Counted from the stretch's first letter, positions 7,381-17,622 are shown. The stretch is 64,000 nucleotides of DNA from Thermodesulfobacteriota bacterium (GCA_963675595.2 CAXXLZ010000002.1:4096001-4160000), one strand, 5' to 3'. Numbers and translations are program-made. Notes: a model not told the origin generated them from the sequence alone.

Positions 7381-9837
7381 TCAGAAGACTCTATGGCGGA
7401 GCTTCCAGAGCGCGAGTCCCATGGACAGAACCATGAGAAGAATCATGCCCCATTCCGACAGGGTGGGCACGGAGGCGACGGCAGGCCCGGTCCGGCGCGC
7501 GCCGATGCCGCCCGGGTCAACGGTCTCGCCGTTTGCGATGCCGTCCTGATCCCCTTCGCCCCCGTCCGTCAGGATGAGCACAAAGGTGTTGTCCCCGTCA
7601 TTCAGCCCCCCCACGTTGGCGTAGGGGGTGTAAGCGCCGGTTTCTTCGTCGAACTTGTAAAAGGTGGAGCCCACGGGAATGCTTCCGGTCATGGTGAACG
7701 CGATGCGGACCGTGCCTCCCACGGGAACGTTGACGACCTTGAAGTCCATGATCCCCCAGGGGAAGTCCGTGCTGGGGGGCGGGGTCCCGCCGGGGTCTTG
7801 ACTGTTCATGTAAAGGATGTAGGGACCTCCCTCGCTCCTCTCGATCTGCATTTCCCAGCCCGCCGCCGGCCCGTCGATGAAATGGGAATCGAAGGAACCC
7901 TGCACCACGGTGCAGGTCTTGTCGGCAATGCTGATGGTTCCGGTCCGGGGTTGATTGGGGTAGCCGTTTTCCGTGATGCGGTAGGTCACCGCGCCGTTCC
8001 CGGTTCCGGAGGCTTCGCCGGTGAGGATGATCCATTCGGCGTTTGAAGCGGCGGTCCAAGGACACCTTTCGGGGATCGTCACATCCATGGTCAAGTTGTT
8101 CGTTGCATCCGGTCCGTGCTGGGGATTCTCGGGATCGATGACTGCCGTGCAGGCGCTCCACAGGGCGTAGAGAGTCCGATCGGCTGCAGGCATGTTGAAC
8201 GTGTCCCCCGGGTCGTACGCGCTTCCGCCCCCGCCCTCCTCGGTGTTCCATTCTTTGAAACCGTAACCGGATTTCTCCATCGTGCCCGGTTCGGGCACGG
8301 TGACCGTATCTCCTGCCTCGTAGGCTTTGGCGTCCGTGGGAGCGGTCCCGCCCGTATTGCCGTTGCCGTCGTAAGTGACCGTGTAGGTGGGTACAAAATT
8401 AGCGGTGACCGTGGCCGAGCCCGTCAGGGTCAACGTGGTGGCGGGGTCGGACGCGTCGCCGAAGGCCGCATTTTCGGCCGGGTCGGCTGTCCAGTTGACA
8501 AAGGCATAGCCGGACGTAGATGTTCCCGTAATGTCTTGAGTGGCGCCCGCGTCCAGAATGGTCTTTGTTCCCGAGGCGGGCACGGTCGTACCCCCTGCGT
8601 CCGGGTCCTTGGCCATGGTGAGGGCCACCTTAACGGTTAGTGTGCCGTTGACATAAGTGATATCGTAGTTGGCAAGTCCTGTTCCCTGTGCGTTGGAAGC
8701 TTCAATGTCATACGTTCCCGGCGATGCATCAGCTGCCGCGCCGGTACTTGTCAATGTAACGGATGTGATGGAATCACCGTTGACAAGTCCTGAGTCTGTG
8801 AATTCCGTCCCCGCAAATGTCAATGTCGTGCCTTGGACTTTGGAGGTATTATCCGCCGTGATCGTCAGGGCTTTCTCCGTTACCGTCAAGTCTCCAGCTG
8901 AGTAAGTTATAGAATAATTTGAAGATGTAAACGTCCCTCCGGTGGCGGAACTGATGCCGATTACATCGCTGTACGTGCCTACAGTGTCCGATGCCTCATT
9001 CCCGCCCGAATACGCAACGGATACACTTCCGATGGTCTCCGAACCTGCCAGTCCGTTTGAAGTAAACGCCGTGTATCCTGTTCCATCGTTCAGGGTTGTT
9101 CCGTACTCTTTGCTCCCTGCGGTAGCCGTTACGAGCAAATTCTCGGGATTAATATCCGCCTTGGCGGAGGCGGTTGTTGAAGAAAGAGAAAATTTGCCCG
9201 AATCATTACCTGACAATGAAATATCGGTGATGACAACATTTATGTCATTGCCGACATTTTCACCGTCGAAAACAGCGGCGGAATAGGTGGCTGAAACATC
9301 ATAGGCTGTAAAGATATTCTGCAGGTCCAAATCAGCCGTTGCAGTTGTTGTGCCGTCATAGGCTTTGTCGTGGGCAACTGCAATCGCGGTCAGCCGTACT
9401 TGAGCGTCACCGGTTATCTCGCCGGTATTGGAGATTGTCGTGCCGCCCACGCCCATATCAATGGTCTTGATTCCGCTGTTTCCGGCCGTCAGGTTGTTCG
9501 TGGCGTTCGAACCGGTCATGGACTGAGCTGTTCCATCGAGAATGACCGTGCCGGTTCCGGCGTTGAAGGTCCCGGAGTTGCTCCAGTCGCCCGCGCACTG
9601 AATGATACCCGCTCCCGATGTCAACGTTCCGTTGGCCTGAACAGCGATGCCGCCCGCGCCCACATCGAGGGTGTTGTCGCCCACGGAAAGCGTCGAACCG
9701 GTGGTCCCGTCCCCGATGGTGAGCTTGTCGCATGCCGTGTCGCACGAAAGGGTCAACTGGGCGGCTCCCAGCGCCGTTCCGGCCATCAGGACAGCAGTCG
9801 CGATTACCATACCGCTCCAAAGGGATATTTTTCTCAT
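7381..9837 (-). CDS. Large secreted surface protein with IPTL-CTERM anchor (YDG/MBG-like, InlB B-repeat, BACON-like modules)
   Basis: Signal peptide. Module motifs DKAYDGTT, ITYVNGTLTV, YTVTYDGNGNTGG and WTAASNAEWI. Tail SVPTLSEWGMILLMVLSMGLALWKLRHR. Confidence 0.85.
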   Translation of the reverse strand: MRKISLWSGMVIATAVLMAGTALGAAQLTLSCDTACDKLTIGDGTTGSTLSVGDNTLDVGAGGIAVQANGTLTSGAGIIQCAGDWSNSGTFNAGTGTVILDGTAQSMTGSNATNNLTAGNSGIKTIDMGVGGTTISNTGEITGDAQVRLTAIAVAHDKAYDGTTTATADLDLQNIFTAYDVSATYSAAVFDGENVGNDINVVITDISLSGNDSGKFSLSSTTASAKADINPENLLVTATAGSKEYGTTLNDGTGYTAFTSNGLAGSETIGSVSVAYSGGNEASDTVGTYSDVIGISSATGGTFTSSNYSITYSAGDLTVTEKALTITADNTSKVQGTTLTFAGTEFTDSGLVNGDSITSVTLTSTGAAADASPGTYDIEASNAQGTGLANYDITYVNGTLTVKVALTMAKDPDAGGTTVPASGTKTILDAGATQDITGTSTSGYAFVNWTADPAENAAFGDASDPATTLTLTGSATVTANFVPTYTVTYDGNGNTGGTAPTDAKAYEAGDTVTVPEPGTMEKSGYGFKEWNTEEGGGGSAYDPGDTFNMPAADRTLYALWSACTAVIDPENPQHGPDATNNLTMDVTIPERCPWTAASNAEWIILTGEASGTGNGAVTYRITENGYPNQPRTGTISIADKTCTVVQGSFDSHFIDGPAAGWEMQIERSEGGPYILYMNSQDPGGTPPPSTDFPWGIMDFKVVNVPVGGTVRIAFTMTGSIPVGSTFYKFDEETGAYTPYANVGGLNDGDNTFVLILTDGGEGDQDGIANGETVDPGGIGARRTGPAVASVPTLSEWGMILLMVLSMGLALWKLRHRVF

Positions 9838-9849
9838 GGGGATTTCTCC

Positions 9850-10109
9850 TTAGAGCCCGAAAAACCCGCAATTGGATGGCCAAACATACCGAGGAGATCG
9901 AGCTTTTCCATCTGCCTGCTTACAGCCCTGACCGAAACCCGGATGAGTTGCTTAGCCGTGACGTCACAAGTAATACCGCCCGAAAGAGAACAGTCGGGAA
10001 CCTCAAAGGCGTTATGAGGATCATCCGGAGTCACCTCTGGAAACAACAGTGGCGGCCTGAACTCTTCCGGAGCTTCTTCAAGAAGCAACAGGCTGCTTAC
10101 GCTGCATAA
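9850..10109 (+). pseudogene. IS630-family transposase C-terminal fragment
   Basis: WMAKHTEEIELFHLPAYSPDRNPDE matches the IS630 LPxYSPELNPxE motif. The N-terminal two-thirds is absent. Confidence 0.8.
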
Positions 10110-10216
10110 ATACTAATCGATTTTCGTGTTTTGATTTTGGGTTGAGGTTTCAATTCGATCCGGTGGATCGCGCCGATGCGTCTGTTGCATTGGGGAGGTA
10201 TGGAATCTGTTCCTAC

Positions 10217-10368
10217 CAGGCTGTTGAAGAACGCGATCTGCGGCGTTGCGCTTCATCCCTCGTCACTGCGACGTACTCTATGTACGTCTCATTCCTCAGG
10301 ATTTGCGCGCCTTGCATCTCATCGTTTTTCAGCAGCCTGCCGCAACCGGCTTTTTTCAACGGGCTGCT
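10217..10368. repeat. REP/MITE-like family A, full copy
   Basis: Imperfect palindrome caggctgttgaagaacgcgatctgcggcgttg...atcgtttttcagcagcctg plus outer arm. A near-identical copy is at 39717-39868. Confidence 0.85.
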
Positions 10369-10389
10369 GATATGGCTGCACACGTCAAT

Positions 10390-10700
10390 AGGGCGCAGCA
10401 TTCTTCCGCCCCTTGTAGCGTTGGGGTATGGCTACCATTTATGGAACTTCAACCTGCGGACAGAGGCGGAACCTGCATAGCGACGGTGGATCATGCTGAT
10501 ATTCGCGGGTTGGTTACCGCCGGACTTGGTTCGTCGCGGAGCTGCCTCTTTCTAGAGACGAGGGTTCGGCAGATGCCAGATCTCCTATCAGGTCACGAGG
10601 ATTCTCCTTACCGCGGTTGCGCCCCTGCTCACAGGTTGAAGCCGGTGTTTTTCCCTTTTACAGTGCCGTCCTCCTTCCAAATCGAACGATATGGTGTTGA
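10390..10700 (-). ncRNA. Putative seek/bridge RNA of the IS1111-type element
   Basis: Non-coding 3' region containing cggtaaccaacccgcgAATATCAGcatgatccaccgtcgc, in which ATATCAG equals the element end plus core. Boundaries are inferred. Confidence 0.55.
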
Positions 10701-10707
10701 TGTGAGG

Positions 10708-11814
10708 CTAAGCGGCAACGGGAACCTCTCTGGCGATCGCCCACAGAAAGGCGGCCATCTCCCTTGCAATGGCCGTGACGGCCACTTGCGACGGCTTACC
10801 CCGGGCCATCAGCCGGTGGTACCGGCCGCACAGACGCAGCTGGGCCTTCCAGCCGATCTTGCAGACCTCGGACGGCGCCTCCTCCCGCCGATCCCTCAGC
10901 CTGCGGCCCACTCGGGGCGGATAGCGATAGGTCCAGGCCCCCTGGATCAATACCCGGCGCGCATGTCCGTTGCCGGACTTGGTAATGCCTCCTTGTTTGC
11001 GCCGTCCTCCGCTGGAACTCTCCGAGGGGACCAAACCCAGATACGCCGTCAACTGCCCGGGCTCATCAAATCGCGTCATGTCGCCCACTTCGGCCACCAC
11101 AGTGACGGCCACGATCAACGACACGCCTCGCATCGATTGGAAGGCCTCCACGACCGGTTTCATAGGCCAGTGCTCCACCTGCTCGCCAATCTGCTCCACC
11201 AATCGCGCCACCCGGCGCTCGCACTCTTCAATGGTGTCGATATACTCCTGAAAAACGATCTGCTGGGCCGGGTGTTCAAACGACTGGTCCGAAAGCCACC
11301 TCCGGTGGGCCCGGCTCCACTTCCGCGGCCCGCCGTACTTCCGACCGTGGCGCAGCAAAAAGGCGTTGAGCCGCTGTTTGGCCTTTCGCTCCGAGCTCTT
11401 GGCATCCTCCCGGGCCCTGGTCAAATCCCGTATCGCCTCGTCCTCCACACGGGGAACATACACCCCCGTGAGTTCTCCAGCCCGATGAAGACGAGCCAGG
11501 GTGACCGCATCCCGTCGATCCGTCTTGATCCGATCGCCGGCTCGTTGGGGCGTCAGCGAGGGCGCCACGACCGTGCAATGGATTCCCCGGGCATGCAGGT
11601 GCCGGTAAAGAACATAGCCGCACGGGCCGGCTTCGTAGACCACCCGAAGCCGATCCTTCTTGTAGCCCAGCCGGCGAATCAATCGATCCACATCCGACGG
11701 CTCCCCGTTGATCTTGCCGTAAGATCGGACTTCTCCATCACGGGACCCTTCGGCCAGGGCAACGTCTATCGATTTCTGGTGAACATCCAATCCAACAAAG
11801 ATAAAATCGGTCAT
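10708..11814 (-). CDS. IS110-family transposase/recombinase
   Basis: FVGLDVHQ, VYEAGPCGY, KTDRRDA, AYLGLVPSESSSG, ITKSGNGHARRVL, AIAREMA. Confidence 0.95.
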   Translation of the reverse strand: MTDFIFVGLDVHQKSIDVALAEGSRDGEVRSYGKINGEPSDVDRLIRRLGYKKDRLRVVYEAGPCGYVLYRHLHARGIHCTVVAPSLTPQRAGDRIKTDRRDAVTLARLHRAGELTGVYVPRVEDEAIRDLTRAREDAKSSERKAKQRLNAFLLRHGRKYGGPRKWSRAHRRWLSDQSFEHPAQQIVFQEYIDTIEECERRVARLVEQIGEQVEHWPMKPVVEAFQSMRGVSLIVAVTVVAEVGDMTRFDEPGQLTAYLGLVPSESSSGGRRKQGGITKSGNGHARRVLIQGAWTYRYPPRVGRRLRDRREEAPSEVCKIGWKAQLRLCGRYHRLMARGKPSQVAVTAIAREMAAFLWAIAREVPVAA

Positions 11815-11918
11815 GGCCTGCCTCCTTGGTGTTGGTTCTGTGGGCGTGGTGATTACTCGCACCATAACCCAACAACGCAGGAGACGGGCCTACTTTCCTG
11901 CACGTGCAGCCATTATGT

Positions 11919-14084
11919 CTACAGATCATCCACCCGTATATGGCCCGGATTCTGCGGGCCGTTCGAACTCTGGTCATTCAGGGTGCAGGCGTTTCCGTAA
12001 AAGCGGATACAATATGCGTTGTTCCCGTGGTTGATCCAACGCCCGTCCGCGCCGATGTCCAGTGCTCCGCCCAGCAGCAGGTCATGCGTCCAGCCTGAGA
12101 GGTCAACGGAGCCCCTGGTGATGGTCAGGGCAGTGGCCACGGTGACATCCGATCCGGTGTTGATGTCCAGTATGTCGTCAGACGCGTCCTTGTTCAGGGT
12201 CAGGGACTTAAAATTCCAGGCGCCGCTGCCGCTCAAAGAGCTGGTTAAAGGACCCGAAAATACGACCTCTGAATCGTCGGCGCAGGTCAGGGTTCCGGAG
12301 TTGTTCAGATTTCCCTGCACGGTCAGGTCGGTGCCGTCGCCATTGGCAATGGTCAGGGTAACACCGGAATCAATGGTCAAATCCCCGTTGACGCTGAGGG
12401 CTCCTCCTGTTGTTTTTATACCCGATCCACTGACGGCAAGATGATGACAGGTACCGGCGAATATCGCCTGATCCGCATCCCGTTGATAGGTGAGAGTACC
12501 GCCGGATACATTCAAGGTTCCGCTTCCGGCTGTTGCCCCGGAAATGGTGATTGCGCTTGAAGTGGTTTCGATGGATGTTGTGCCGGTCACATTGACGTTT
12601 CCATTTTGACTTTCAAAATTCACATCTCCGCTGTCAGTCACTATTCGGACTCCGGCGAGCGTGATATCGTCACTCTGGGCAACAAGCTGAATCCTGCTGG
12701 AACCTGTCGCGATAAGCGCTCCGTTATTGCTCTCGCCGTTACCGGTAATGCTTATCTCGCCCGTTTTGGCGATGATTGCGGAATCGGTATCCGTGAAACG
12801 AGCCAGACCGCCGTCCTCCAGGGCGAAAGAAGCGACGGCATAAGCGTCGTCTATGTCCGGATCGTTACTGGTCGTGGACGCATCGGGGATCAGTACATCG
12901 TCCGCTTCGTCGGGAATGCTGCCGTCCTGCCAGTTGAGTGCCTCCTGCCAGTTGCTGCTCGCCTGTCCGGTCCACAGCCCGGGCCTCCCATTGACCGTCA
13001 GTTGTCGGGAAACCGGGAGAGCGGGGTTATAGGTATCGTCTCCAGCCTGGGAGGCCGTAATATTTGCCGTTCCCACGTCGATGATGTGAATTTTCCCGCT
13101 TAGTATGGTAGCCACACTAGTGTTGTCACCGGAATAGCTTACTGGAAGACTTGAACTGGCGGTTGCTCCGGGAGCAAAATCAGCGTCTCCAAAAGTCTTG
13201 GCTGGAAGTTCGCCAAAGGTGATGGTTTGGTCGGCTTTGGTTGTGGTCTGGGACTGGTATGAGGTGTAGGCGCCTGTACCGGCTTCATTTTCTCCGCGGA
13301 TACGAATATAATACGTTGTATTTGGCGAAAGCCCGGTTACAGTGGTGCTGCCGGATGAAATTTCAGTTCCGCTCTTGACTACATTGGTGAAAGCCGTATT
13401 TGTACTTACCTGATAATCCCAGTCGGTAATGCGATAATTGTTGTCACTGGTTTTGTTTATAATGAAAGAACTGCTTGCCGCGCTGGATACGGAGAAGGAG
13501 GGATTTACCGGAATGGAATAGTTCCACCAGATAGCCATTTCGACTCTATAGTCATCATCAGTGGTAGTCCCTGATTTCACATAACCACTGCAGGTTCCGC
13601 TGCTGCAGGCGCCGTAGAACCCTGTCCATAAGTTTCTGCTGTTCCCGCTGATATTGGTATCAATGTTTTCATAACTAGCAAAATCGTCATCTCCACCGTT
13701 ATTTGTGCAATTTGGAGCATCATCATTCTCCCATCCAGAAATAAGAATATACAGATCATCGGCATTATCAAGTATTTTTCCCGTCCAGATTGTATCAAGC
13801 GAGCAATGCCACCATCTACCTGATTCATAATCGTCGGAGTTGTTATAGCAGAGTAGGCCCGAATAAGTGCCGGAGGAAGATAATTTATACTGCAATGTCC
13901 ACGCAAGCTCTTCATCACCATTTTCACCGCCACTGACATTGGCATAGAAATCATCGGTCCTTATTGCATAATCAATATAGACTGCGGCCCGACATGTATT
14001 GCCAAACGCCATTGCAAGCACACATGTAAAGAGTACGCTCAGAAATTTCAATGAGGTCTTCATTTTATTCTCCGTATATTTCAT
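11919..14084 (-). CDS. Secreted protein with fibronectin-III domain and beta-helix-like repeats
   Basis: Signal peptide, FN3 (VTGLSPNTTYYIRIRGEN), WTGQASSNWQEALNW motif, and Thr/Gly/Asn-rich repeats. No C-terminal anchor. Confidence 0.75.
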   Translation of the reverse strand: MKYTENKMKTSLKFLSVLFTCVLAMAFGNTCRAAVYIDYAIRTDDFYANVSGGENGDEELAWTLQYKLSSSGTYSGLLCYNNSDDYESGRWWHCSLDTIWTGKILDNADDLYILISGWENDDAPNCTNNGGDDDFASYENIDTNISGNSRNLWTGFYGACSSGTCSGYVKSGTTTDDDYRVEMAIWWNYSIPVNPSFSVSSAASSSFIINKTSDNNYRITDWDYQVSTNTAFTNVVKSGTEISSGSTTVTGLSPNTTYYIRIRGENEAGTGAYTSYQSQTTTKADQTITFGELPAKTFGDADFAPGATASSSLPVSYSGDNTSVATILSGKIHIIDVGTANITASQAGDDTYNPALPVSRQLTVNGRPGLWTGQASSNWQEALNWQDGSIPDEADDVLIPDASTTSNDPDIDDAYAVASFALEDGGLARFTDTDSAIIAKTGEISITGNGESNNGALIATGSSRIQLVAQSDDITLAGVRIVTDSGDVNFESQNGNVNVTGTTSIETTSSAITISGATAGSGTLNVSGGTLTYQRDADQAIFAGTCHHLAVSGSGIKTTGGALSVNGDLTIDSGVTLTIANGDGTDLTVQGNLNNSGTLTCADDSEVVFSGPLTSSLSGSGAWNFKSLTLNKDASDDILDINTGSDVTVATALTITRGSVDLSGWTHDLLLGGALDIGADGRWINHGNNAYCIRFYGNACTLNDQSSNGPQNPGHIRVDDL

Positions 14085-14255
14085 CGAAGTTTCTTTTGGT
14101 ATCTCAGCCTGATCCGCAGGAGGGCTGTTCCTGTCTGTTTTATTTCTTAACGAATATGGGATGCATTAATGCTGCATGGCCGGCGGGTGCTGAAATCAGA
14201 AAACTTGATGGTAATGGTACCATATCTTATTGAAATTTAAAGGTAATTTTAAAAA

Positions 14256-14304
14256 AGGACGAGCAAGCCATTATTGAGGACGAATCAGCATTATGGAAGG
14301 ACGA
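14256..14304 (-). promoter_or_regulatory. Triple LytTR-type operator
   Basis: AGGACGA at 14256, 14277 and 14298 (exact 21-bp period). Upstream of the 14084 start and adjacent to the LytS/LytTR pair. Confidence 0.75.
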
Positions 14305-16520: not shown

Positions 16521-17297
16521 TCATGATAAGGGGTAAATACTGAGCAGATGCCTTTTCAGGTTGTCGGCGGCGGCTCTGCCGAGAAGCAGTGATGCGTCTG
16601 TATTGCTGAACTCAAGCTGCTGATTTCCCGATTCATTGTGCAGACTTTTAATCAGGGAGGTGTTTATTATCGTGGAGCGGTCAACACGCAGAAAAGGAAG
16701 AGAGCCGAGGCGTTCTTCCCATAACTTCATGGAATATCTGCTCTTAAGCAGTCGGGCCTGATCAACGCACATGACTTCGCTGTAATTTCTGGCAGCCCTG
16801 ATCCAGATGATGGAATCGACCCGGACCATGGTCAGGCTTCTTTCAGGACAGAGAAGAATCTGGTCGGTGAGTTCCAACGTCCCGGAAAATTTCGTGGTTC
16901 CGCTCCCAAAGCCCTTGTTTTGTCCTGCCAGAAGTCTCTGCACGGATTTCCCCAGTCGCGCGGGATCAATGGGCTTCAGAAGATAATCCAAGGCGTTGAC
17001 CTCAAAGGCGCGCAGGGCAAAATGATCATAGGCCGTCACGAAAACGACATCAGGCACATGTTCAATACCGTCAAGCACGTCAAATCCGGTTCCCTGCCGG
17101 AGCTGAATGTCCAGAAATACGGCATCCGGCTTGAGCGTGTTTATCTTTTCCCGGGCTTCGGACACGCTCGCGGCTTCGCCAATGATTTGCACCTGCTCAT
17201 AATCAGAGAACAGATCAATCATGTTCTCTCTGGCCCAGTATTCATCGTCAACGATAAGAGCTGTGATTGATGTTTTGCTTTTTGACATATCTTGCAT
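16521..17297 (-). CDS. LytTR-family response regulator
   Basis: REC (IVDDE, FLDIQL, YLLKP) plus LytTR domain (IIWIRAARNYS, FLRVDRSTIIN). Confidence 0.92.
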   Translation of the reverse strand: MQDMSKSKTSITALIVDDEYWARENMIDLFSDYEQVQIIGEAASVSEAREKINTLKPDAVFLDIQLRQGTGFDVLDGIEHVPDVVFVTAYDHFALRAFEVNALDYLLKPIDPARLGKSVQRLLAGQNKGFGSGTTKFSGTLELTDQILLCPERSLTMVRVDSIIWIRAARNYSEVMCVDQARLLKSRYSMKLWEERLGSLPFLRVDRSTIINTSLIKSLHNESGNQQLEFSNTDASLLLGRAAADNLKRHLLSIYPLS

Positions 17298-17622
17298 GTA
17301 TTGCGAGGTATTCCTCAAGTTCAGGTTAAGTGGAGCCATATTCATCTTTGCCGATATAAATTGTCGACTTCTCAAAACCTTTGCGAATATCTTCCAAGAA
17401 TCCTTGGCTATGTCCTGTTTCTTCAAATTAAGTCATAATGAGGCCATCGGCAGGAGTGTTCCCATAATTTCGCCTTATCAGTCTGAAAATTACAGGTTTC
17501 CATTCAGGTACGAATCGACTTCTCCTTATCCTCGGCGGTGAAATGCCGGCCAAGGCGCCCAGCTTTCGTCCCTTTTCCAATGCGAGGTCGGCCGCGGTGA
17601 AGAGACCTCGGAATGAATTCCT

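Follow-up and report, generated by a model that had tools for sequence, protein, structure and literature searches.

Two neighboring genes of a Thermodesulfobacteriota bacterium code for secreted proteins with matching beta-helix ends predicted to dock across two chains

Two co-oriented genes for secreted proteins

The subject of this study is a pair of genes in a 64,000-nt stretch of DNA from a Thermodesulfobacteriota bacterium (GCA_963675595.2, CAXXLZ010000002.1:4096001-4160000). We refer to the whole stretch as the window and to its genome as G000. The protein products carry the working names p1 and p2, whereas tail denotes the C-terminal module of p1 and head the N-terminal module of p2. 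A first-pass annotation of the window had noticed two co-oriented secreted proteins and had proposed that they are the tip and the anchored stalk of a single beta-helix split over two chains. Both open reading frames (ORFs) are indeed found on the minus strand at the expected places (Table 1), and the proteins have signal-peptide-like N-termini. We estimate a probability of about 60% that each of the two proteins is exported on its own and that complementary open beta-helix ends join them end to end.

In p1, a signal-peptide-like N-terminus is followed by an N-terminal domain, an FN3 domain, an Ig-like repeat and a right-handed beta-helix, the last part of which is the tail. The corresponding database gene call (P0001) has 714 aa and starts seven codons later, from 14063. 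The FN3 domain was mapped by Pfam (PF00041, 25.9 bits versus a cut-off of 25), while the Ig-like repeat is the portion common to most database matches. Neither Pfam nor NCBIfam scans revealed an anchor motif. The C-terminus, ...GPQNPGHIRVDDL, reads ...QNPGHIRVDDL. An FN3-containing protein without an anchor and with this very end is what the first-pass annotation had described. As a separate observation, the N-terminal domain of p1 (about 170 aa, YIDYAIRTDDFYANV...GWENDD...) has no match in Pfam or NCBIfam and is common only to p1 and its ortholog P0002, described below. Its best Atlas score (0.84, to a cluster with C2 in 30% of the members) is too weak to serve as a lead.

The p2 protein begins with the signal peptide MRKISLWSGMVIATAVLMAGTALG, directly followed by AAQLTLSCDTACDKLTIGDG...; the sequence after the signal peptide reads AAQLTLSCDTACDKLTIG... 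and includes GDWSNSGTF. The head is succeeded by a YDG domain, two MBG domains, Flg_new repeats, a BACON-like region (sub-threshold, 18.2 versus 25 bits), a choice-of-anchor U region and IPTL-CTERM. The latter was detected by both PF18203 (30.1 bits, cut-off 20.8, residues 788-815) and TIGR04174 (21.9 bits, cut-off 20.5), and the C-terminus of the protein, ...VPTLSEWGMILLMVLSMGLALWKLRHRVF, shows the IPTL-like motif with the subsequent hydrophobic helix and basic residues that are typical of this family. The signal peptide, the GDWSNSGTF motif and the IPTL-CTERM end noted earlier are therefore all present. Some of the MBG/YDG relatives of p2 (e.g. P0169) contain the TPS domain PF05860; Pfam finds this domain in neither p1 nor p2, and no search for a TpsB gene was made.

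Table 1. Features of the locus (window coordinates)
Feature	Coordinates	Strand	Basis and remarks
p1, proposed 'tip' or cargo protein	11919..14084	minus	ORF, 721 aa
Tail module, last 162 aa of p1 (residues 560-721), ...FYGNACTLNDQSSNGPQNPGHIRVDDL	11922..12407	minus	phmmer, model
N-terminal domain of p1, residues 27-196	13497..14006		
p2, proposed anchored 'stalk'	7381..9837	minus	ORF, 818 aa
Head module, p2 residues 25 to ~148, AAQLTLSCDTACDKLTIGDG...QCAGDWSNSGTF...	9394..9765	minus	hidden Markov model (HMM), model
17 nt next to the p2 start			AAGGAG ribosome-binding site of p2
3' remnant of IS630-family transposase gene	~9855..10109	plus	PF13358, 30.3 bits; NF033545 positions 237-294 of 299
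Short dispersed repeat (miniature inverted-repeat transposable element (MITE)- or repetitive extragenic palindrome (REP)-like), ~160 bp	10204..10366		38 other matches in the genome
IS110-family element, 1,552 bp	10367..11918	minus	NF033542, 276.9 bits (cut-off 140); PF01548, 62.4 bits; PF02371, 79 bits
IS110-family transposase gene	10708..11865	minus	NF033542
94 nt of the gap, no element assigned	within 9838..11918		
Sensor histidine kinase, 695 aa	14411..16498	minus	PAS; LytS-type His_kinase PF06580, 73.6 bits; directly upstream of p1
LytTR response regulator	16521..17426	minus	PF00072, 65.6 bits; PF04397, 47.5 bits; upstream of the kinase
Secreted right-handed beta-helix protein, 554 aa	17623..19287	minus	PF13229; just upstream of the LytTR regulator

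A conserved module at the C-terminus of p1

We used the last 162 residues of p1 as a phmmer query against 1.84 billion representative sequences. This resulted in 76 matches at E <= 0.001, including 33 at E <= 1e-10. Among the 37 matches that reach query position 155 or beyond, 35 carry the module within five residues of their own C-terminus, the exceptions being the weak matches P0292 and P0319. In p1 and in these 35 proteins the tail ends within a few residues of ...QNLGHVKV, an end point kept across 35 cluster representatives with sequence identity down to about 40%. The sequence N-terminal to the tail, on the other hand, varies widely and includes DUF4347, PMP-like repeats, FN3, lectin-like and other domains. 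No Pfam or NCBIfam model covers the tail above its cut-off in the scans of p1. The sole full-length relative of p1 in the protein collection is the ortholog P0002 (732 aa, 67% identity, 479 of 714 residues), which has the same end point plus one residue (...GPQNLGHVKVEDLP).

Judging from these comparisons, the tail is a conserved portable beta-helix module that resides at the extreme C-terminus of proteins differing in their N-terminal parts. We regard it as such, and p1 as an unbroken protein, because of the end of the ortholog, the 35 of 37 terminal matches and the stop codon present in an allele free of the insertion sequence (IS; see below). The first-pass annotation had p1 stopping in the middle of a repeat. 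The place of the stop was correct, but it is not an accident of this locus; it is the natural end of a conserved C-terminal module.

The same placement on diverse passengers would also be expected of a C-terminal sorting or secretion domain, similar to the C-terminal domains of the type IX secretion system (T9SS) or to PEP-CTERM. The head would then be an ordinary beta-helix start, and p1 and p2 would not touch each other. It fits this possibility that the majority of tail proteins lack a head of their own. Nevertheless, we consider it unlikely. With about 160-350 aa, the module is a long beta-helix prolonging that of the passenger rather than a compact signal. Moreover, there is just one tail in the genome of the window and there are four intact tails in genome G294, the other tail-containing genome discussed below, and no dedicated sorting enzyme is seen in the loci read.

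A module right behind the signal peptide of p2

A word-based search with residues 1-150 of p2 returned few relatives, seven of them at E <= 0.01. The head relatives include P0121 (a 98% strain variant), P0241 (70% identity), P0242, P0244, P0275 and P0299. These are also the only six of 320 stored proteins in which the head HMM matches from position 1-2, at residue 25-29, right behind the signal peptide; the cleavage sites were inferred from sequence without a prediction tool. Together with p2 and the two head proteins of G294 (heads A and B), they share the start consensus A.LTLS.N..C..LT.G. Generic repeat proteins are matched differently, mostly on internal repeats from about position 36 and in a few cases from position 4-6. 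Four of the proteins (P0242, P0244, P0275 and P0299) have a head at the start and a tail at the end of one chain, and the first two of them appear to share one 47,164-bp contig.

Two minor observations concern individual relatives. The metagenome protein P0121 is 98% identical to p2 over the first 517 aa and has the same N-terminus. It then continues with unrelated sequence up to a stop at 581 aa, suggesting that this copy of p2 is frameshifted in its strain. P0319 was considered as a possible tail-head fusion and rejected: the stretch following its tail-like module has little similarity to the head start (27% identity; E 0.024 in a single comparison).

Predicted structures and the tail-head complex

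The tail was modeled as an all-beta structure with a predicted local distance difference test (pLDDT) score of 92.7. The model superposes on beta-helix adhesins, autotransporter passengers and tailspikes, and can be assigned to right-handed parallel beta-helices. The best correspondence is to 5nxk_A (Z 11.8, root-mean-square deviation 2.9, 155 residues aligned), followed by 4wa0_A (Z 11.3) and 4om9_A (Z 11.2). In total, 48 chains have Z >= 8 to the model, many of them beta-helix adhesins, lyases and tailspikes. Foldseek found no PDB matches to the tail at E <= 0.001. The head model has a pLDDT of 71 (86-92 across the first 60 residues), and its first strand begins at residue 3. The first-pass annotation had named capping motifs at the two termini as an observation that would speak against pairing. 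In the two models, neither a helix nor any other cap is visible at the C-terminus of p1 or at the mature N-terminus of p2.

We then considered the prediction for the two modules together. Joint folding of the 162-aa tail (17-row alignment) and residues 25-160 of p2 (7-row alignment) gave ipSAE values of 0.84, 0.87 and 0.84 in three runs, compared to 0.00 for the best of three controls, all unrelated natural proteins. In calibration, the mark for this score was reached by 116 of 157 solved complexes and by 2 of 215 mismatched pairs. The contacts agree between the runs by at least 98%, and the pLDDT of the partners is at least 74. The predicted interface is formed by p1 residues 685-720 (tail 126-161) and p2 residues 25-50 (head 1-26), that is, exactly by the two termini whose contact had been proposed. 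The ACTLN strand lies on QLTLS and GHIR lies on CDKLT in the complex model, so that one helix would continue the other end to end. It is unlikely that the result reflects a remembered structure, since Foldseek found no close solved relative of the tail. The juxtaposition of the two termini in the models is left unexplained if the tail is a sorting domain.

Occurrence of the modules and arrangement of their genes

When all six frames of the window's genome were scanned with the HMMs, p1 was the only complete tail and p2 the only head. The tail is rare. It occurs in 2 of the 401 sampled genomes of the phylum, G000 and G294, the latter representing another class, and in 1 of the 121 genomes of G294's order. 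Whole p1 was found in 1 of the 95 genomes of the window's class, namely G000, which is likewise the only one to have it among 40 relatives. The head is present in the same two genomes; in addition, there is a partial match (query positions 30-110) in G099.

Three loci of genome G294 together contain four tail genes that are intact and two head genes. Locus A consists of tail A0 (1177 aa), an AAA-ATPase-like gene, tail A and head A. Tail A is a DUF4347 protein of 1607 aa that ends ...GPQNLGHVKVDE, whereas head A (2264 aa) starts MKKIFLWSSMMLTAFILMSGTALGAAQLTLSSDMACDQLT..., its head being 63% identical to that of p2. The stop codon of tail A is separated from the ATG of head A by 29 nt that include an AAGGAGG site, and this spacer resembles the sequence preceding the start codon of p2. 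Locus B comprises tail B (1134 aa, ...RVEDLP), a PDDEXK_9 gene fragment, a decayed tail fragment and head B (2266 aa), which lies about 1.5 kb downstream of tail B and in which the head is followed by YDG, as in p2. In locus C, a LytTR regulator, a kinase and P0002 follow one another as their counterparts do in the window. IPTL-CTERM is missing from the head proteins of G294, which end instead in a different C-terminal domain, common to both.

Homologous pairs, for which the first-pass annotation had suggested a search, are thus found outside the window. In the two genomes, all three head genes (3/3) come directly after a co-oriented tail gene, an arrangement for which a sorting function of the tail offers no explanation. 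The suggestion of exchangeable tips is also in line with the data, as the N-terminal parts of tail proteins are diverse and G294 has four intact tails for two heads. Every test that the first-pass annotation had named is favorable as far as computation goes, which supports its proposal, and its underlying observation is confirmed.

A metagenome scan revealed two short loci with a tail, L004 and L005, neither of them with a head. L004 has a kinase gene followed by the tail gene; it cannot show a downstream head because the contig ends 142 nt past the tail gene.

Several side observations concern these loci. P0002 and tail B (L020 ~10718..10800 and L021 ~10191..10240, respectively, in G294) both end ...GATCTTCCGTAG, and their stop codons run into one hairpin-forming element, GGGCAGAC...GTCTGCCCAATG, present in two copies after P0002. 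The element may be REP-like or a shared terminator overlapping the stop codon. Near-identical AAA-ATPase_like genes (PF09820; L022 3580..5367 and 8972..10768) occur among the tail and head genes of loci A and B, and the PDDEXK_9 fragment (L021 10655..11338) is interleaved with tail and head genes as well. These genes may be mobile or rearrangement-prone and may have shuffled the G294 loci.

The genome of the window also encodes a 1909-aa paralog as a single ORF (L001 4491..10220; G000:C2:2974491-2980220). It is composed of a DUF4347-like start, FG-GAP-like repeats, a p1-like beta-helix, Flg_new repeats, FN3 and a choice-of-anchor-U-like region. The tail HMM matches it up to position 116 only, and the head HMM does not match it. 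Its anchor may have been cut off by an IS110-family insertion, as the C-terminus turns into unrelated sequence just before an IS110-family transposase gene (L001 10288..11454).

Continuous relatives such as this paralog and P0319 leave room for a different interpretation, according to which p1 and p2 are independent neighbors from one repeat family, produced by duplication or old fission, and their matching ends are a functionless relic. Both modules do come from one widespread repeat family, the head HMM also matches internal repeats of many proteins from about position 36, and conservation at the interface is not raised (see below). However, a relic would be expected to decay, and yet the exact end of the tail is kept in the 35 cluster representatives despite their divergence. 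The exact start behind the signal peptide is likewise kept in eight proteins, and the operon-like spacing of 29 nt is found in a genome of another class. We therefore think it quite improbable that the matching ends have no function.

Mobile DNA between the two genes

The two genes are separated by 2,081 nt (9838..11918). According to the first-pass annotation, only mobile DNA lies between them. This is true for nearly the entire gap, the rest being 94 nt without an assignment and the 17 nt with the ribosome-binding site of p2. The remnant of the IS630-family gene has its truncated 5' side a few nucleotides from this site, and the IS110 element is inserted between the end of the short repeat and the stop codon of p1.

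The IS110 assignment is based on the DEDD transposase (PF01548 plus PF02371), multiple copies and site-specific insertion. Besides the copy in the window, the genome has four others (five in total; 97.6-99.2% identity) at about 318635, 1778117, 4267804 and 4494743 of G000:C2. All five are flanked on either side by a CT dinucleotide. CTG stands just left of the IS end in 5/5 copies and is preceded in four of them, including that of the window, by repeat-like ...ttca[ac]c.g. or ...ctgcagc. The short dispersed repeat itself has imperfect inverted ends, ...TTCAAC[AG]G[CG]CTG. Its end is suggested to be the target of the IS110 element because three of the four other copies (c1778, c4496 and c320) adjoin a repeat-like end, ...ttca[ac]cagc or ...ctgcagc, before CTG; the flank of the fourth, c4269, shows only caggCTG. 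The pattern suggests that an IS110-type transposase targets a MITE- or REP-like element in a site-specific manner.

An allele without the IS110 element was found in run X3 from a closely related strain, in which one 3,634-nt contig joins position 10366 directly to 11919. The junction has a 2-nt ambiguity that matches the CT on each side of the element, and the TAG stop codon is retained directly after ...VDDL. With a single contig, a depth of 3.9 and 30 nt on the short side, this evidence is modest, but it agrees with the rest. All five IS copies end ...TTATGTCTA, which had raised the idea that the element supplies the stop codon of p1. The X3 contig rules this out: CTA, the complement of TAG, is retained in the IS-free allele and so belongs to the target rather than to the IS. 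With related strains that do and do not have the element between the genes, the locus represents a natural experiment.

It might be argued that p1 and p2 are pseudogene fragments of one long adhesin gene broken by mobile DNA, which after all occupies nearly the whole gap; the 1909-aa relative in the same genome even combines a p1-like helix with p2-like Flg_new repeats in a continuous chain. This explanation is hardly tenable. The stop codon of p1 is present without the IS, and the end point of p1 is common to the ortholog in another genome and to 35 other proteins. Furthermore, the signal peptide and ribosome-binding site of p2 are complete and are conserved in head A of G294, P0121 and P0241. 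Instead, since heads directly follow tails and the sequence upstream of p2 resembles the 29-nt spacer of locus A, the mobile block appears to sit in a former short operon spacer. The genes would once have been a few tens of nucleotides apart, as in G294, and the gap would later have been filled by the IS630 remnant, by the short repeat and, most recently, by the IS110 element.

A model of docking and how it compares with the evidence

The data are best explained if p1 and p2 each supply one half of a docking pair built from a single beta-helix repeat family. Each protein would be exported on its own by its signal peptide, and p2 would be held at the cell surface by the IPTL-CTERM anchor. After cleavage, p2 would present the head as an uncapped beta-helix N-terminus (AAQLTLS...CDKLTI...), while p1 would end in the tail as an uncapped beta-helix C-terminus (...ACTLND...GHIRVDDL). 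Because the last rung of the tail would stack on the first strands of the head, the two helices would form a continuous one, fixing the p1 cargo (the N-terminal domain, FN3 and the Ig-like repeat) to the anchored stalk. In this arrangement p2 would serve as the anchor and p1 as the distal cargo, and many cargo proteins would dock by way of the portable tail. Given that the tail is portable and that some proteins combine it with a head, one base could be common to different tips and perhaps also to extender subunits.

A number of observations weigh against docking. Some of them concern the distribution of the modules. A head is found in the same chain in just 3 of the 35 terminal-tail matches (same-protein count), and a tail-like module is internal in two weak matches, P0319 and P0316. 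Two of the four intact tail genes of G294 have no head gene directly after them; in particular, the p1 ortholog in locus C has none in the 19 kb covered. The tail gene of L005 is followed, 228 nt on, by a LytTR-type response-regulator gene and not by a head gene. G099 has a related N-terminal domain and no tail at E <= 1e-8, which would also suit a sorting role of the tail. Other observations concern the complex. The controls were proteins not known to be beta-helices, so a general bias toward stacking any two beta-helix ends may contribute to the score, and halves of split genes tend to pass this test, as the tool itself warns. Predicted interface columns of the tail are not more conserved than the others (mean top-residue frequency of 0.66 versus 0.61); among the 127 windows of 36 columns, the last one is 61st in conservation. 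Finally, a consensus scan of the minus strand over 9838..10250 found no promoter-like site for p2, and in the strain of the window the mobile DNA may separate p2 from its promoter.

Should docking be real, it would constitute a new route to bacterial surface structures, with one beta-helix extending over two separately exported chains. It would define two portable modules, tail and head, matched by no Pfam or NCBIfam model here, and would explain why large secreted proteins without an anchor of their own have a common C-terminal end. It would also provide a testable rule for which protein sits on which stalk, and the modules could serve as a natural, genetically encoded protein-protein connector. 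A more far-reaching possibility, which we put forward only tentatively and hold to be less likely true than false, is that tail and head form a general plug-and-socket code. Some bacteria would then build multi-protein surface fibers from an anchored base with only a head (p2), optional extenders with both modules (of the P0242/P0244 type) and interchangeable tips with only a tail (p1, DUF4347 or PMP-repeat proteins), individual tips being switched on by their own LytTR systems. Such a code would amount to a new assembly principle, one beta-solenoid running across polypeptide chains.

Relation to known systems

As far as titles and abstract openings tell, a full-text literature search returned no account of a beta-helix adhesin that is divided between two secreted chains. 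The pair would belong to a known kind of assembly, in which surface proteins dock through modules and beta-solenoids stack heterotypically, with two apparently undescribed modules.

Curli, with the CsgB nucleator and CsgA subunits, and bactofilin are beta-solenoids that stack end to end. The arrangement proposed for p1 and p2 is similar in that beta-solenoid units are exported separately, open ends stack and a surface-held partner receives the other one. The chain 2n3d appears in the structure comparison of the tail model. Unlike in curli, the partners p1 and p2 are large, adhesin-like and composed of several domains, and their right-handed beta-helix has rungs of about 20 residues. Their docking appears to be heterotypic and directional (C-terminal tail onto N-terminal head), probably with 1:1 stoichiometry, rather than an amyloid-like polymerization. 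Pfam and NCBIfam scans indicate no sequence relation of p1 or p2 to Csg proteins.

In the cohesin-dockerin system of the cellulosome, a portable module on varied cargo plugs into an anchored scaffold, and adaptors carry both modules. The likeness to p1 and p2, a portable tail on cargo and a matching module on an anchored protein, is one of function only. The fold and the mechanism are unrelated, the proposed join being a beta-helix continued across two chains, and Pfam gives no cohesin or dockerin match in p1 or p2 at E <= 0.01.

Chaperone-usher pili and the type V pili of Bacteroidota are assembled by insertion of a single strand into an Ig-like fold with the aid of a chaperone or protease. 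As proposed here for p1 and p2, every subunit of these donor-strand pili is exported by itself and completes the fold of a neighboring one, with the tip, shaft and anchor encoded in one locus. In the p1-p2 model, by contrast, whole beta-helix rungs would stack, and no usher, chaperone or processing protease is seen in the loci read.

With respect to fold, the tail model resembles the Lactobacillus reuteri serine-rich repeat protein (SRRP) 5nxk, the Caldicellulosiruptor adhesin/tapirin structures 4wa0 and 6n2b, Pet (4om9) and Hap (3syj). These are single-chain helices with 10-12% sequence identity to the tail, and to our knowledge none of these proteins is split over two secreted chains. IPTL-CTERM proteins share their motif with p2, which accounts only for the possible anchoring of p2.

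Neighboring genes and putative regulation

The secreted 554-aa beta-helix protein encoded upstream of the regulators (Table 1) is neither a head nor a tail protein.

The first-pass annotation had placed p1 and p2 under LytS/LytTR control. The domains characteristic of such a system are present, PF06580 in the sensor and the LytTR DNA-binding domain in the regulator. Pfam reports no 5TM-type LytS membrane sensor domain in the kinase. Its N-terminal part contains PAS domains, preceded by a dCache_1 match that is weak (26.9 bits versus a cut-off of 45). Judged by its domains, the kinase is a LytS-type core on a different sensor, because the 5TM domain is absent and weak dCache_1 plus PAS are found instead. 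The order regulator-kinase-tail is common to the window and locus C of G294; L004 retains kinase-tail and L005 has tail-regulator. It is this gene order that points to possible regulation of p1 and p2 by the neighboring LytTR two-component system.

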